A stretch of DNA of 63,876 nucleotides, the filler included. It is 6 parts of 6 records of this genome, joined end to end, with 100 filler letters (N's around TTAATTAATTAA, not from the genome) between each part and the next. Parts side by side here need not be neighbours in the genome. Positions count along the whole stretch, not along the records: positions 46,167 to 63,876 come from DRR723986_25581; 5 more parts are not named here. One strand, 5' to 3'. This document shows positions 5,122-49,092 of this stretch, piece after piece (the stretch's first letter is position 1; each line of letters opens with the position of its first letter). The notes below the pieces were generated by a model. The model made no database searches. It was not told where the DNA came from and saw only the letters and a program-made list of their open reading frames with translations. The position numbers and the translations under genes are program-made.

Positions 5122-5221
5122 NNNNNNNNNNNNNNNNNNNNNNNNNNNNNNNNNNNNNNNNNNNNTTAATTAATTAANNNNNNNNNNNNNNNNNNNNNNN
5201 NNNNNNNNNNNNNNNNNNNNN
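5122..5221. other. Synthetic contig spacer
   Basis: 44 N + TTAATTAATTAA (stops in all six frames) + 44 N; identical to the four other spacers. Confidence 0.99.
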
Positions 5222-12860: not shown

Positions 12861-12960
12861 NNNNNNNNNNNNNNNNNNNNNNNNNNNNNNNNNNNNNNNN
12901 NNNNTTAATTAATTAANNNNNNNNNNNNNNNNNNNNNNNNNNNNNNNNNNNNNNNNNNNN
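12861..12960. other. Synthetic contig spacer
   Basis: Same 100-bp N/TTAATTAATTAA/N block. Confidence 0.99.
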
Positions 12961-25027: not shown

Positions 25028-25127
25028 NNNNNNNNNNNNNNNNNNNNNNNNNNNNNNNNNNNNNNNNNNNNTTAATTAATTAANNNNNNNNNNNNNNNNN
25101 NNNNNNNNNNNNNNNNNNNNNNNNNNN
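25028..25127. other. Synthetic contig spacer
   Basis: Same 100-bp block. Confidence 0.99.
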
Positions 25128-30621: not shown

Positions 30622-30721
30622 NNNNNNNNNNNNNNNNNNNNNNNNNNNNNNNNNNNNNNNNNNNNTTAATTAATTAANNNNNNNNNNNNNNNNNNNNNNN
30701 NNNNNNNNNNNNNNNNNNNNN
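30622..30721. other. Synthetic contig spacer
   Basis: Same 100-bp block. Confidence 0.99.
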
Positions 30722-46066: not shown

Positions 46067-46166
46067 NNNNNNNNNNNNNNNNNNNNNNNNNNNNNNNNNN
46101 NNNNNNNNNNTTAATTAATTAANNNNNNNNNNNNNNNNNNNNNNNNNNNNNNNNNNNNNNNNNNNN
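46067..46166. other. Synthetic contig spacer
   Basis: Same 100-bp block. Confidence 0.99.
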
Positions 46167-46235
46167 GGTAGCTCAGTTGGTTAGAGCGCAGGATTCATAA
46201 CCCTGAGGTCGGGAGTTCAAATCTCCCTCTCGCTA
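46167..46235 (+). tRNA. tRNA-Met(CAT), probably elongator; about 5 nt missing at the 5' end
   Basis: TAGCTCAGTTGGTTAGAGC D arm, CAGGA-TTCATAA-CCCTG anticodon arm, GGGAG-TTCAAAT-CTCCC T arm. Lacks the initiator three G:C pairs; CCA not encoded. Confidence 0.93.
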
Positions 46236-46238
46236 CAT

Positions 46239-46267
46239 AAGGCTTTCGGAAATGGAAGCCTTTTTTT
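46239..46267 (+). terminator. Terminator after tRNA-Met
   Basis: AAGGCTTTCG-GAAA-TGGAAGCCTT followed by a T run. Confidence 0.88.
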
Positions 46268-46277
46268 GTTTTTATTA

Positions 46278-46538
46278 ATGGATGAATTTGTAGTCTATAT
46301 TCTTTATTCAAAATCCGCTGGCAAAACCTACACTGGTATGACATCGGATTTGATTACAAGGTTTCACTTTCACAACTACAAGTCAACCAAAGGGTTTACC
46401 TTAAAATATCGCCCTTGGTATGTCATTCATGTTGAATTCTTTACTACCAAAAAGAAAGCTTTGATGCGAGAAAAAGAATTAAAAACAGGTAAAGGAAGAG
46501 ACTGGATAAAACGTGAAATTCTAATAAATTATTACTAA
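46278..46538 (+). CDS. Small stand-alone GIY-YIG nuclease (SLX1/UPF0213-like, 86 aa)
   Basis: VVYILYS...TYTGMT.DL..RF..HN...FT..YRPW...VE.F...A..REKELK; catalytic Tyr, Arg and Glu positions present. Confidence 0.92.
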   Translation: MDEFVVYILYSKSAGKTYTGMTSDLITRFHFHNYKSTKGFTLKYRPWYVIHVEFFTTKKKALMREKELKTGKGRDWIKREILINYY

Positions 46539-46646
46539 GTACAGGTTTCATATCCGCTACAACACGGCGCACAGGCGCGGCGGTCAGCAGTTCAAGTCTC
46601 CCTCTCTCTACACAATGCTTTCGGAAACGAAAGCCTTTTTTTGTTT
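46539..46646 (+). repeat. Degenerate second copy of the tRNA-Met 3' half plus terminator, interrupted after the anticodon
   Basis: 46582-46646 matches 46207-46271 at 57/65 nt and 46539-46552 matches 46186-46199 at 11/14 nt; 29 GC-rich nt replace 7 nt between the two blocks. Confidence 0.9.
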
Positions 46647-46704
46647 GTATACTAGCTTCTCACTCTTAATTATTTACCAGCTAATTATTCTTTATTTTTA
46701 GAGG

Positions 46705-48021
46705 ATGACATCTTCCGAAATAAAAACTCCACCTACTTCACTTTTTTCTAAACTGAAGTTTCTTGGGCCTGGATTTATACTTTCGGCCTCCATTGTCGGA
46801 TCCGGTGAATTAATCGCAACAACGGTACTTGGTGCGAAAGGCGGGTTTATCACCTTTTGGGTCATTCTAGTTAGTTGTTTAATAAAAGTTGCGATCCAAC
46901 TGGAATTTGGTAAGAATACCATCGTAACTGGTAATCCATTGATGACTTCTTTTTCCACATTATCTGGACCAAAAAACTGGGCAGTTTGGAGCACTTTCAT
47001 ATTGACACTTTTTAAAATAGTGCAGCTGGGCGGGATGATTGGAGGAGCAGCCATTGCCCTTAGTATGCTTTTACCAATGCTACCTCCTATCCTACTCGCT
47101 TTTATTTTGGGAGCTATTACAAGTCTTTTAATTTACAGGAATTACTATAGTATAGTAGAGCGAACATCCTTGTTCATGGTTTTTGGATTCACTGTTTTTA
47201 CCCTGGCTTCTGTTATCGCAGTAAATTATAGTCCTTATGCCTTTTCAATTGATGATGTCTTATCTGGATTAACATTTGAATTGCCTTCAAATCTGATTTT
47301 CGTCGCGATTGGAGCTTTCGGTATAACAGGTGTTGCCAGCGATGAGATAATCGCCTACACTTACTGGTGCCTAGAAAAAGGCTATGCCAAGTATACCGGC
47401 GAAAATGATGGAAGTGAGGAATGGAAAGTCAGGGCAAATGGATGGATTAAAGTCATGTATCTAGATGCCATCTTCGCAATGCTTATTTACACCCTCGTCA
47501 CTGCAGCATTTTATCTTTTGGGCGCTTCTATTCTATATGGCAATGAGGCTATTCCAAGTGGCAATCAACTTATAGAAACCTTGGCTAGTATCTATACTCA
47601 AACCCTAGGCGGCAATGCAAGGCTTACATACATTACCGGAGCTTTCTTTGTGCTTTTTTCGAGTGTGTTTGCTACGCTTGCTTATTGGACACGATTGCTT
47701 CCAGATATCTTTGGAGAATTAGGTTGGATAGCTTATGAAAATCTGAAAACTAGAAAAAAATGGGTTGCTATACTAGCCTGGGTTCTACCGATCCTATGGG
47801 CTCTTGCCTTTGCATATGTAGAGTTACCTGCGTTTATGGTACTGTCTGGAGGAATAGTAGGTTCAGTACTTCTATTAGTAGTCGTCTATGCAGCCATTCA
47901 GTTTCGATTTAAAAACAGTGTTTTAAAATTGGACTCAGGATTTATTTCTATTCTCCTATTCTGGCTTAGCGTACTTTCCATAGGATTGGTATCTTTCTAT
48001 GGAATTGTGAAGTTATTTTAG
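46705..48021 (+). CDS. Nramp-like (MntH-related) membrane transporter
   Basis: LGPGFILSASIVGSGELIATT start and about 11 hydrophobic segments. Lacks the canonical DPGN motif, so the substrate is unassigned. Confidence 0.8.
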   Translation: MTSSEIKTPPTSLFSKLKFLGPGFILSASIVGSGELIATTVLGAKGGFITFWVILVSCLIKVAIQLEFGKNTIVTGNPLMTSFSTLSGPKNWAVWSTFILTLFKIVQLGGMIGGAAIALSMLLPMLPPILLAFILGAITSLLIYRNYYSIVERTSLFMVFGFTVFTLASVIAVNYSPYAFSIDDVLSGLTFELPSNLIFVAIGAFGITGVASDEIIAYTYWCLEKGYAKYTGENDGSEEWKVRANGWIKVMYLDAIFAMLIYTLVTAAFYLLGASILYGNEAIPSGNQLIETLASIYTQTLGGNARLTYITGAFFVLFSSVFATLAYWTRLLPDIFGELGWIAYENLKTRKKWVAILAWVLPILWALAFAYVELPAFMVLSGGIVGSVLLLVVVYAAIQFRFKNSVLKLDSGFISILLFWLSVLSIGLVSFYGIVKLF

Positions 48022-49092
48022 CTGAACAATTCCAATTGTAGGGTTTTTTTCTTCTGTTTCACTATCTGAATATTCCAATTGCTGCACGAAGTAAAAGATG
48101 TCCCTTCCTAAATCCAGCGGTCTGAGAACTACGGGGTTCCCATTACCATCTAAGACTCCCTTTTGCAAATTGTATCCGAGTGCACTCTCCTTTTCATAGA
48201 TATAAATCAGGTACTTAGAGTCTGCATAATACTCACAGAGCACATAGGAAAGCGAATTAACTACATTGTATATCTGGATTTTTTTTATGCCACCCTTGTC
48301 TAAAACCTGTTTGGTTTCAAAATTCAATTTCAAGAATGGTGTCAAAACTTTTTCCTTGAATTTATATAAGGTGTCATGAAGAATTATTTGACTACCAAAA
48401 TCCGGCACATACACAAAATGGTCAAGCCCTACTGTGGAGAAGTAATTCTTGATTGGAAAGTCAGAAGCTGAGCGTGATTTAAGTTTCACTTCCCTAACTA
48501 GTATGGTATCAACCACATCCAAAGATTTATTGATTTCATAAAATGAAGCTCGGTTAAGAAACCCTTCCTCCTGTGGTATTGACAACTCTTGCCTCAGCAC
48601 AAACAATTTATCTTCCAAAACGGAGAAAGCATTCACATTAAATGGAAGTGAATTTTCTAAGAATAATTCATCCTCCTTGGAATAAACGTACAGCTTCCTG
48701 GCCGATGCTACATAAAGAAGGTTTGATTCTTCGTCAATGGTCATTTGAGGAAAAAATTCATATTCTCCTGGCCCCTCTCCCCGTTTGCCTAATACCTTAA
48801 CAAACTTCCCTTCTTGATCAAATATCAAAATCCTCCTGGAAGCATCTGAAACATAAATTTTATCATTGAACAGTTTAATATCCAAAACACCTGTCAAAAA
48901 AGAGCTATCATTGGTCTCTAGCTGAATGAGTTTTAAAGATTTTGTCAATTGTTCTAGTTGCAATTCCTGGTCTATCTTACTAGGAATCTCAACGATTGGT
49001 AAGCTAGTTTCTAGAATTTTAGAGCACCTAAAAAATCCGAATCCTACTACAAAACAGGCTGATAGTAAAAAGAAATTTGACTTATGCTTCAT
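48013..49092 (-). CDS. 6-bladed beta-propeller lipoprotein (Bacteroidota family)
   Basis: Signal peptide with Cys, IQLETND, IFDQEGKF, GEGPGEY and a C-terminal EKNPTIGIVQLK. Confidence 0.8.
   Translation of the reverse strand: MKHKSNFFLLSACFVVGFGFFRCSKILETSLPIVEIPSKIDQELQLEQLTKSLKLIQLETNDSSFLTGVLDIKLFNDKIYVSDASRRILIFDQEGKFVKVLGKRGEGPGEYEFFPQMTIDEESNLLYVASARKLYVYSKEDELFLENSLPFNVNAFSVLEDKLFVLRQELSIPQEEGFLNRASFYEINKSLDVVDTILVREVKLKSRSASDFPIKNYFSTVGLDHFVYVPDFGSQIILHDTLYKFKEKVLTPFLKLNFETKQVLDKGGIKKIQIYNVVNSLSYVLCEYYADSKYLIYIYEKESALGYNLQKGVLDGNGNPVVLRPLDLGRDIFYFVQQLEYSDSETEEKNPTIGIVQLK

Follow-up and report, generated by a model that had tools for sequence, protein, structure and literature searches.

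Organization of the locus

We analyzed a stretch of DNA of 63,876 nucleotides (hereafter, the window) composed of six contigs, and describe here a small locus at positions 46167-46646, which opens the last contig. It comprises an elongator tRNA-Met gene with its intrinsic terminator, a gene for an 86-aa GIY-YIG nuclease starting ten nt past the T run of this terminator, and, three nt past the stop codon, a partial copy of the tRNA in which a GC-rich hairpin stands directly behind the anticodon region (Table 1). The tRNA, terminator and nuclease gene reported by the first-pass annotation of this DNA were recovered at the same coordinates by Rfam, Pfam and a terminator scan. As had also been noted, the contig begins inside the tRNA, at its position 6. 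The Rfam tRNA match (46162-46235, 48 bits, E 3.7e-9) therefore includes five model positions that lie on N, and ARAGORN detected no tRNA in the window because the contig start removes the 5′ end; in the nearest genome, that of Algoriphagus winogradskyi DSM 15360 (same species, designated G001), it identified the full gene as tRNA-Met(CAT).

The copy as a whole corresponds to decayed tRNA positions 27-76 plus the terminator. Its first segment, positions 27-37, reads CAGGTTTCATA vs CAGGATTCATA in the original, and it is broken directly after CAT-A, as first described; the junction is the same in relatives. The interruption had been presented as an insertion of 29 GC-rich nt. The GC-rich block is real, but it is a replacement: 32 nt (46553-46584) substitute for the 10 nt of tRNA positions 38-47. 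The T stem of the copy is damaged (CAGCAG vs CTCCC), in agreement with the initial description. The duplication was recovered as a 69-nt direct repeat (46207-46275 and 46582-46650, 87% identical) with the expected offset of 375, whereas identity over 46206-46270 was 56/65 and not 57/65. Two terminator-like hairpins were found vs 0.6 expected in shuffled sequences, and the changes from G:U to Watson-Crick pairs pointed out in the second terminator are correct on the sequence, but trivial.

No intron and no second tRNA or other RNA were detected by Rfam at the locus. A scan of the plus strand for sigma-70-like promoters, which does not cover Bacteroidota promoters, found none. The absence of an integrase was also confirmed: the interval between the tRNA and the downstream Nramp gene holds no tyrosine or serine recombinase and only the 86-aa open reading frame (ORF), the same bounds are present in relatives, and a START-like gene lies upstream of the locus in G001.

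Table 1. Features of the tRNA-Met locus, in window coordinates
Feature	Position	Strand	Basis or remark
Elongator tRNA-Met (anticodon CAT), lacking its first 5 nt	46167..46235	+	Rfam tRNA; matches full 75-nt gene of G001
Intrinsic terminator of the tRNA	46239..46267	+	Hairpin 46239-46262, 10 pairs; T run ends at 46267
Gene for 86-aa single-domain GIY-YIG nuclease, stop included	46278..46538	+	Pfam PF01541; ATG at 46278, stop at 46536-46538
Copy of tRNA positions 27-37 (5′ strand of anticodon stem and loop to CAT-A)	46542..46552	+	10/11 identical to 46189-46199
HP1L, long HP1 variant replacing tRNA positions 38-47	46553..46584	+	Fold and conserved variants in relatives
Decayed copy of T arm, 3′ acceptor strand and discriminator (positions 48-73)	46585..46610	+	Part of 69-nt repeat
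Second terminator, copy of the first	46617..46641	+	Hairpin 46617-46634, 7 pairs, GAAA loop, followed by T run
Nramp-family transporter gene, host gene bounding the cassette on the right	46705..48021	+	Pfam Nramp, E 4e-10

A minimal GIY-YIG protein

The 86-aa protein matched the Pfam GIY-YIG domain (PF01541) over residues 3-71 with 53.8 bits (E 2.4e-14, cut-off 22.6) and no other Pfam domain. The AlphaFold model shows the core fold only and the C-terminus lies 15 residues past the Pfam match, leaving no room for a DNA-binding domain. Residues Y7, Y18, G20, R28, H32 and E65 were invariant in 20 relatives, and N33 nearly so. The protein encoded in G001, which belongs to the same clade (hereafter, the Met clade), is 100% identical to the window protein. 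In the AlphaFold model (pLDDT 90.1), strands 4-11, 16-22 and 48-55 together with helices form the GIY-YIG fold.

All of the top 10 solved structures listed by Foldseek were GIY-YIG proteins, with E-values of 0.0036 or weaker and none at or below 0.001. The nearest chains were UPF0213 protein BH0048, followed by Slx1, EF2693, HIGLE and N-terminal domains of UvrC; a phmmer search against solved structures agreed weakly, its best relevant match also being BH0048 (E 0.038). Similarity to Slx1 and the UPF0213 proteins BH0048 and EF2693 amounted to template modeling scores of 0.53-0.64 (normalized to the query) and 25-30% identity, at Foldseek E-values above 0.001. Slx1 cleaves branched and flapped DNA; it has Slx4 as its partner and, besides the nuclease domain, a RING-type domain. 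To our knowledge, no function has been assigned to the UPF0213 structures. Searches with the protein in other family libraries returned no family (NCBIfam 0, PHROGs 0, PADLOC 0). Judged by its sequence, the protein is a minimal GIY-YIG nuclease with a predicted intact active site, of the single-domain Ssn/UPF0213/Slx1-like kind.

Occurrence beside tRNA genes in Bacteroidota

The same layout is found at other tRNA genes. Four of five small GIY-YIG matches in G001 were located 45-50 nt behind a same-strand tRNA and terminator, these being Met, Asp (two tandem copies, one with a stop) and Ala, and each of the four genes was followed by a partial tRNA copy with its anticodon arm replaced by a hairpin. 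Matches were present in 30 of 41 relative genomes, and a same-strand tRNA (for Met, Asp, Ala, Ser, Lys, Leu, Val, His or Asn) was located just upstream in 26/33 loci examined. The other seven loci had no upstream tRNA (L005, L012, L024, L025, L037, L039 and L040); L012 is truncated at the end of its contig, and L024, L025, L037 and L040 represent a longer subfamily of 97-101 aa.

For the Met clade, a search with a 10-protein alignment, limited to one genome per species, gave 340 relatives, and the best 78 loci, which came from Cyclobacteriaceae, Flavobacteriaceae, Saprospiraceae and Chitinophagaceae, were analyzed. Among the 73 loci with at least 150 nt of upstream sequence, 67 had a same-strand tRNA-Met within 450 nt and three more had one at 545-1777 nt; no other tRNA type occupied this position at any of the 73. 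Because the loci were picked by similarity and are kin, these counts show recurrence, not independent events. The association of small GIY-YIG genes with tRNAs that had been suggested as a check was thus observed both in relatives at large and within the clade.

The host tRNA, assigned at 70 Met-clade loci, was the elongator in 49 and the initiator in 21. A nuclease tree (66 proteins, 87 columns, obtained with a quick search and poorly resolved) required 4 host-tRNA switches vs a shuffled mean of 16, and at least two of the four switches between elongator and initiator were forced by well-supported branches.

Two individual loci deserve mention. In the tRNA-Ala clade, the nuclease ORF of L004 (1470-1500, minus strand) runs into a pseudo-tRNA and stops inside GATTAG, at about tRNA positions 4-9; the copy is therefore nearly full length and fused to the 3′ end of the gene. 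Locus L050 is a 21.9-kb contig in a metagenome-assembled genome labeled Limnohabitans (Pseudomonadota), with a cassette 75% identical to that of the window and an Algoriphagus-type tRNA-Met. A binning error is more likely here than transfer between phyla.

Hairpins replacing tRNA segments

The hairpin in the window was described at first as an imperfect palindrome (TCCGCT...GGCGCA) and as a mark made at the duplicated target. It is indeed a hairpin, but instead of being a mark of the target it is a long variant (HP1L) of a conserved family hairpin, HP1, which is also dispersed elsewhere in some genomes. We collected 115 copies of HP1 (pattern TCCGCCnnGGCGGA) in the 78 Met-clade loci, in all four families; stems were exact in 103/115 copies, a count biased by the search pattern, which allowed at most one mismatch. 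The center is free (GC 76, TC 12, AC 6, GT 5, and four others once each), and the flanks are not: TCATA precedes 98/115 copies and C follows 112/115. HP1 or HP1L was located within 110 nt after the stop codon in 48/78 loci and HP1 within 140 nt before the start codon in 16/78, with both in 13/78. HP1L of the window consists of the outer 5-bp HP1 stem plus an inner 4-bp GC hairpin (-8 kcal/mol), and long variants occupy the same place in L001, L012, L013, L022 and L120. Neither canonical HP1 nor the second hairpin type described below was detected in the window, which contains only the long variant.

HP1 replaces the same ten positions in copies of elongator and initiator tRNA-Met, two genes that share little beyond TCATAACCCnnAGGTC, and the proposed conservation of the palindrome at 37/38 thus extends to two different tRNA-Met genes. 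The T stem retained five pairs in 46/114 copies vs intact HP1 stems in 102/114, the latter number being inflated by the search pattern. The 18 nt located 3′ of HP1 matched the local tRNA at a mean of 14.1/18 positions (37/105 perfect) vs 10.0/18 for other T-arm types. The copies were therefore made from, or homogenized with, the local gene.

A second hairpin type, TCCCG...CGGGA, replaces the whole anticodon stem-loop in the Asp, Ala, Lys, Val and Asn clades, and in some Met pseudo-copies it stands in place of the D arm or of part of the T stem and acceptor strand. As the D arm is also exchanged, hairpins substitute for whole tRNA stem-loops. Among the upstream pseudo-tRNA-Met copies of L014, L120 and L121, some carry the second type in place of the D arm in addition to HP1 at 38-47. 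A third palindrome, CCTGCCTGCCGGCAGGCAGG, was observed at the HP1 position in Met locus L049 (about 10-50 nt after the ORF) and 38 nt before a nuclease gene at tRNA-Ser in L023.

Other repeats were found around related sequences. A second small GIY-YIG subfamily is located away from tRNA genes, and its representative L005 (1260-2010) is flanked by several CTTCGCTCAGCCTGACA-type repeats. Similar repeats occur close to an isolated HP1-like hairpin that lies between two permease genes in L011 (1540-1660, minus strand), and about 170-250 nt after the ORF of L013 (oriented).

States of the locus in Algoriphagus and relatives

At the G001 locus, three 101-bp units precede the intact tRNA-Met and its terminator, followed by a spacer, a pseudo-copy, the nuclease gene and a window-type copy with the long hairpin. 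The three units are identical, each combining the upstream flank and tRNA positions 1-37 with HP1 and the greater part of the T arm; here HP1 is a perfect 14-nt palindrome, TCCGCCGCGGCGGA. The pseudo-copy before the nuclease gene contains about positions 20-37, HP1, positions 48-76 and the terminator. In these pseudo-copies, HP1 replaces the 10 nt ACCCTGAGGT (positions 38-47) directly after CAT-A. The intact gene at this locus is the sole elongator tRNA-Met in G001.

Other genomes of the genus show different states. G020 has a clean tRNA-Met and terminator with zero copies, i.e., an empty site. G025 and G022 have hairpin pseudo-copies on both sides of the tRNA and no nuclease gene, and G008 retains a relic with one upstream pseudo-copy and no gene. 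G025 has the same spacer as G001, pointing to gene loss by recombination between flanking copies. Nuclease pseudogenes with stops were found in L021 and L022, and, elsewhere, cassettes repeated in tandem every ~350-395 nt in L047, L069, L086, L096 and L105, in addition to the 101-nt arrays of G001. Both tandem arrays and empty-site alleles, which had been suggested as things to look for, thus exist, as do relics. The idea that the locus is the residue of a larger integrase-bearing island found no support: neither an integrase nor a larger island was detected at the locus or in relatives, and host genes begin no more than ~150 nt to the right. Owing to the duplicated segments, filled and empty sites fit every cyclic permutation of the insert equally well, so that sequence alone does not reveal where the element truly begins and ends.

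The repeats fit as the cause of the window contig starting inside the tRNA. In two isolate-like runs, with contigs identical to G001, the region breaks into 40-97-nt unitigs at ~1.3-3x the depth of the neighboring 17.6-kb contig, which begins in the terminator preceding the nuclease gene. When contigs of four runs were mapped to the G001 locus, we detected neither a joint nor a contig bridging the region, and the repeats were covered solely by short unitigs with elevated depth.

Relationship to known systems

The closest described system is the Ssn family, composed of single-domain GIY-YIG proteins of ~94 aa that bind a hairpin repeat exclusively when the DNA is single-stranded, and cleave a few nt upstream of it (PMC11893778; Chenal et al., Nat Commun 2025). 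Genes for these proteins are often bracketed by hairpin repeats (NTS/SRM), of which a genome may have hundreds (PMC11893778). Several features of N. meningitidis SsnA and related systems reported there recur here: the Y-Y-E spacing equals Y6/Y17/E64 of SsnA, the protein is small and single-domain (86 aa in the window), and its gene lies between GC-rich hairpins of its own kind; these hairpins have a free loop, an orientation set by the flanks, a conserved C directly 3′, and dispersed copies in some genomes (PMC11893778). In contrast to Ssn, hairpins of the present cassette are located inside disabled tRNA copies, at fixed tRNA positions and beside an intact tRNA. The word "tRNA" is absent from the main text of PMC11893778. 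Its Supplementary Data 4 gives A. winogradskyi as positive for cd10448 by PSI-BLAST and negative for a CDD score above 100, the gene behind the match not being stated. Membership of the 86-aa protein in the Ssn family is not established.

Free-standing GIY-YIG homing endonucleases, such as SegB and those of the I-TevI type, carry one or more added DNA-binding domains, and SegB is larger than the present protein and has additional parts. As expected of homing endonucleases, presence of the cassette is patchy, and an empty cognate site was observed in a close relative; an added DNA-binding domain was not found. T-even phages carry the gene for SegB within their tRNA gene cluster (PMC2330249), and in phage T6 the nuclease activity of SegB and recombination lead to tandem amplification of a segment containing tRNA genes and segB, a process described for phages only (PMC13096335). 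The present locus is similar in having a GIY-YIG gene among tRNA genes and a candidate target in a tRNA gene, and SegB-dependent amplification resembles the arrays described above (PMC2330249, PMC13096335). However, the substrate of the phage enzyme SegB is double-stranded DNA, in which it recognizes a T-loop motif (PMC2330249, PMC13096335), whereas here we found a bacterial chromosome, an 86-aa protein with no PHROGs family match, an anticodon-loop position and conserved hairpins.

Hairpin-guided single-strand elements of the IS200/IS605 and REP/Y1 transposase-like type are discussed in PMC11893778. They, too, have a small gene flanked by hairpins that multiply in the genome, adjoin a short constant sequence on one side (here, TCATA) and lack an integrase. 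They differ in their enzyme, which is HUH/Y1 instead of GIY-YIG, and in that simple cut-and-insert at 37/38 would not leave the intact upstream tRNA observed here. Integrase islands at tRNA 3′ ends are similar in that a direct repeat of the 3′ part of the tRNA brackets the insert and the tRNA remains intact; in contrast, this locus has no integrase or other gene, an insert of ~375 bp, a repeat with a hairpin substitution, and host genes ~150 nt to the right.

A tRNA intron at 37/38, the canonical archaeal and eukaryotic site, was rejected. The interrupted copy has neither positions 1-26 nor 38-47, and therefore no splicing could restore a tRNA; the agreement in position, to which attention had been drawn, is coincidental. 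In our literature searches, which did not extend to the supplements of PMC13096335 and the bacterial homologs that these may list, no paper described an association of small chromosomal GIY-YIG genes of bacteria with pseudo-tRNAs that carry hairpins.

A proposed nuclease-hairpin cassette at tRNA genes

The reading that we favor, with about even confidence, is that the locus is an Ssn-like cassette of a nuclease and a hairpin, kept and spread by break-induced homologous recombination at tRNA genes. The nuclease would be expressed by read-through from the tRNA-Met promoter, and HP1 (in the window, its long variant) would be its DNA partner. Binding would take place when the hairpin is on single-stranded DNA, during replication, heavy transcription of the tRNA or DNA uptake, and the cut would be placed beside the hairpin, within the anticodon-loop sequence. 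The break would then be repaired by homologous recombination with the neighboring intact tRNA gene. Such repair would generate and rearrange partial tRNA duplicates and change the copy number of the cassette upward or downward; on occasion it would also transfer the cassette to a second tRNA gene that has an identical anticodon-loop sequence. One intact tRNA would always be left. Repair of this kind would explain why the partial duplicates resemble the gene beside them, and would also account for the 101-nt and ~375-nt arrays and the deletions that leave relics, as well as for the one surviving intact tRNA and the occasional moves between tRNA genes that share the loop. With a layout that recurs beside tRNA genes across Bacteroidota, the cassette behaves like selfish DNA. 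The earlier suggestion of a nuclease-only element propagating at tRNA genes was therefore apt as a description, in that the element is tied to tRNA genes and has a duplicated target and a palindrome at 37/38, while its propagation is inferred only.

A broader claim may be entertained tentatively, and we lean against it: that these cassettes are a new class of mobile DNA. Such an element of ~375 bp would combine a minimal GIY-YIG single-strand nuclease with a cognate hairpin, find a tRNA gene by its anticodon-loop sequence and be copied by break-induced, homology-templated repair without a recombinase, the host surviving because one intact tRNA is always spared; hairpins would replace whole stem-loops of the disabled copies, and each nuclease lineage would have its own tRNA species and hairpin type.

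Several observations weigh against the reading of an Ssn-like cassette spread by recombination. A subclade (L019/L021) has no downstream pseudo-copy. Apart from the switches of host tRNA, the nuclease tree follows taxonomy, and much of the distribution could reflect vertical descent with losses. The stem counts of HP1 carry the bias noted above. By the patterns used, neither HP1 nor HP1L was detected near the gene in 27/78 loci, some of which carry other hairpins at the same place (e.g., L049 and L072). The hairpin of the window is only modestly better than shuffled sequences (z -1.8). The published SRM pattern of Ssn had no match on either strand of L002, L004, L005 and L006, and for A. winogradskyi an SRM enrichment of 0.65-fold and no SsnA homolog by tblastn are listed (PMC11893778 Supplementary Data 4).

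The dispersal of HP1 is a further point of this kind. The exact pattern occurred 60 times in G003, 29 in G008, 22 in G022, twice in G025 and once in G020, with 0 matches for a reversed control, and most of the sampled copies in G003 formed the center of a ~150-bp repeat with inverted ends. With the query used, the Met-clade nuclease was not found in G003, G008 and G022, each of which has other GIY-YIG genes. Other nucleases may use the same core, the hairpin may spread alone, or the core may simply be a favored palindrome. This dispersal weakens a strict picture of one nuclease and one hairpin, and it fits the NTS-like behavior of such repeats. A one-to-one pairing between HP1 and the Met-clade nuclease was rejected, given the abundance of HP1 in the three genomes where this clade was not found. 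The sampled sites are L131-L137, L140, L141, L143, L145 and L150 in G003 and L146-L149 in G008, and many copies are located at contig ends.

Alternative explanations

The protein could be a classical double-strand homing endonuclease similar to phage SegB, cutting the anticodon region of cassette-free tRNA-Met genes; repair from an allele with the cassette would copy the gene in, and the hairpin would provide immunity by destroying the target in the spare copy. Such a cycle would explain the patchy presence with an empty site, pseudogenes and relics, and the fixed anticodon-loop position in two tRNA-Met genes that have TCATAACCCnnAGGTC in common; SegB, too, is found among tRNA genes, recognizes a tRNA motif and homes (PMC2330249). 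Nevertheless, we consider it unlikely, since an intact and presumably cleavable tRNA gene always adjoins the nuclease gene, the protein has only 86 aa, no DNA-binding domain and no PHROGs match, and the same hairpin is found far from tRNA genes. Moreover, immunity needs mere disruption of the site, not a 14-nt hairpin kept across four families.

A role that serves the host has a small chance of being correct. Recombination driven by the nuclease would keep, repair or amplify tRNA loci, or arrays of pseudo-tRNAs would act as decoys or regulators. The cassette is kept across many Bacteroidota and is always beside a working tRNA gene (in G001, the sole elongator copy), and tRNA gene amplification driven by SegB lets phage T6 escape a tRNA-cutting defense (PMC13096335). 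However, the amplified units are disabled copies and not working tRNAs, loss or disruption of the nuclease gene is common at loci that keep the tRNA, a congener with a clean site (G020) does well, and no PADLOC defense family was matched.

We see only a slim chance that the partner of the nuclease is RNA, either a tRNA-like transcript of the hairpin-bearing pseudo-tRNA or an element for processing or stability of the mRNA. The copy on the coding strand directly past the stop codon, with a terminator at its end, the ORF of the Ala clade that continues into a tRNA-like copy, and hairpins that preserve a cloverleaf-like outline while replacing whole tRNA arms would all suit this idea. Yet the window copy has no 5′ acceptor strand or D arm, Rfam finds no second RNA, and N. 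meningitidis SsnA is reported to be inactive on RNA (PMC11893778). In addition, the tRNA-like parts decay, the T stem being intact in 46/114 copies, which disfavors the nuclease paired with a tRNA-mimic RNA that the first-pass annotation had offered as its other option.

Finally, an ordinary tandem duplication of the tRNA 3′ end by an unrelated small gene, with no functional link, is scarcely credible: tRNA genes and terminators are common substrates of duplication and recombination and the window copy is decayed, but the layout is present at 67/73 Met-clade loci and beside different tRNAs in other clades, the conserved hairpin occupies the same nucleotide position, and the locus varies in state among congeners.

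Implications

If the favored reading is correct, the cassettes would be Ssn-like nuclease-hairpin pairs with SegB-like behavior at tRNA genes. Single-strand DNA cutters of the Ssn type would have a large unrecognized branch in Bacteroidota that is tied to tRNA genes, which would explain partial tRNA copies, GC hairpins and contig breaks at the tRNA loci of many genomes. One 86-aa protein would maintain and move DNA at essential genes without a recombinase and without killing the host. The matched pairs of nuclease and hairpin (Met with HP1; Asp, Ala, Val and Lys with the second type) might be useful as tools for single-stranded DNA, and, should the cassettes represent a new mobile class, they would offer a natural set of programmable triplets of nuclease, hairpin and target. 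Annotation should then treat pseudo-tRNAs with hairpin-substituted arms as cassette remnants.

Genomic context of the window

The six contigs of the window are separated by N spacers at 5122-5221, 12861-12960, 25028-25127, 30622-30721 and 46067-46166, and have G+C contents, in order, of 60, 51, 52, 68, 53 and 39%. The last contig (46167-63876, 39%) is the sole Algoriphagus-like one. It is 17.7 kb long, ~28% of the window, and the same share of the sequence words of the window was found in G001. From the spread in G+C, the assembly is probably a mixed bin.

An Nramp gene is also located 3′ of the cassette or its relics in L001, L012, L014, L120 and L121, within ~150 nt in several species. In the window, it is followed on the minus strand (48013-49092) by a gene for a DUF5128 six-bladed beta-propeller protein with a DUF4934 domain, an ordinary gene unrelated to the cassette.

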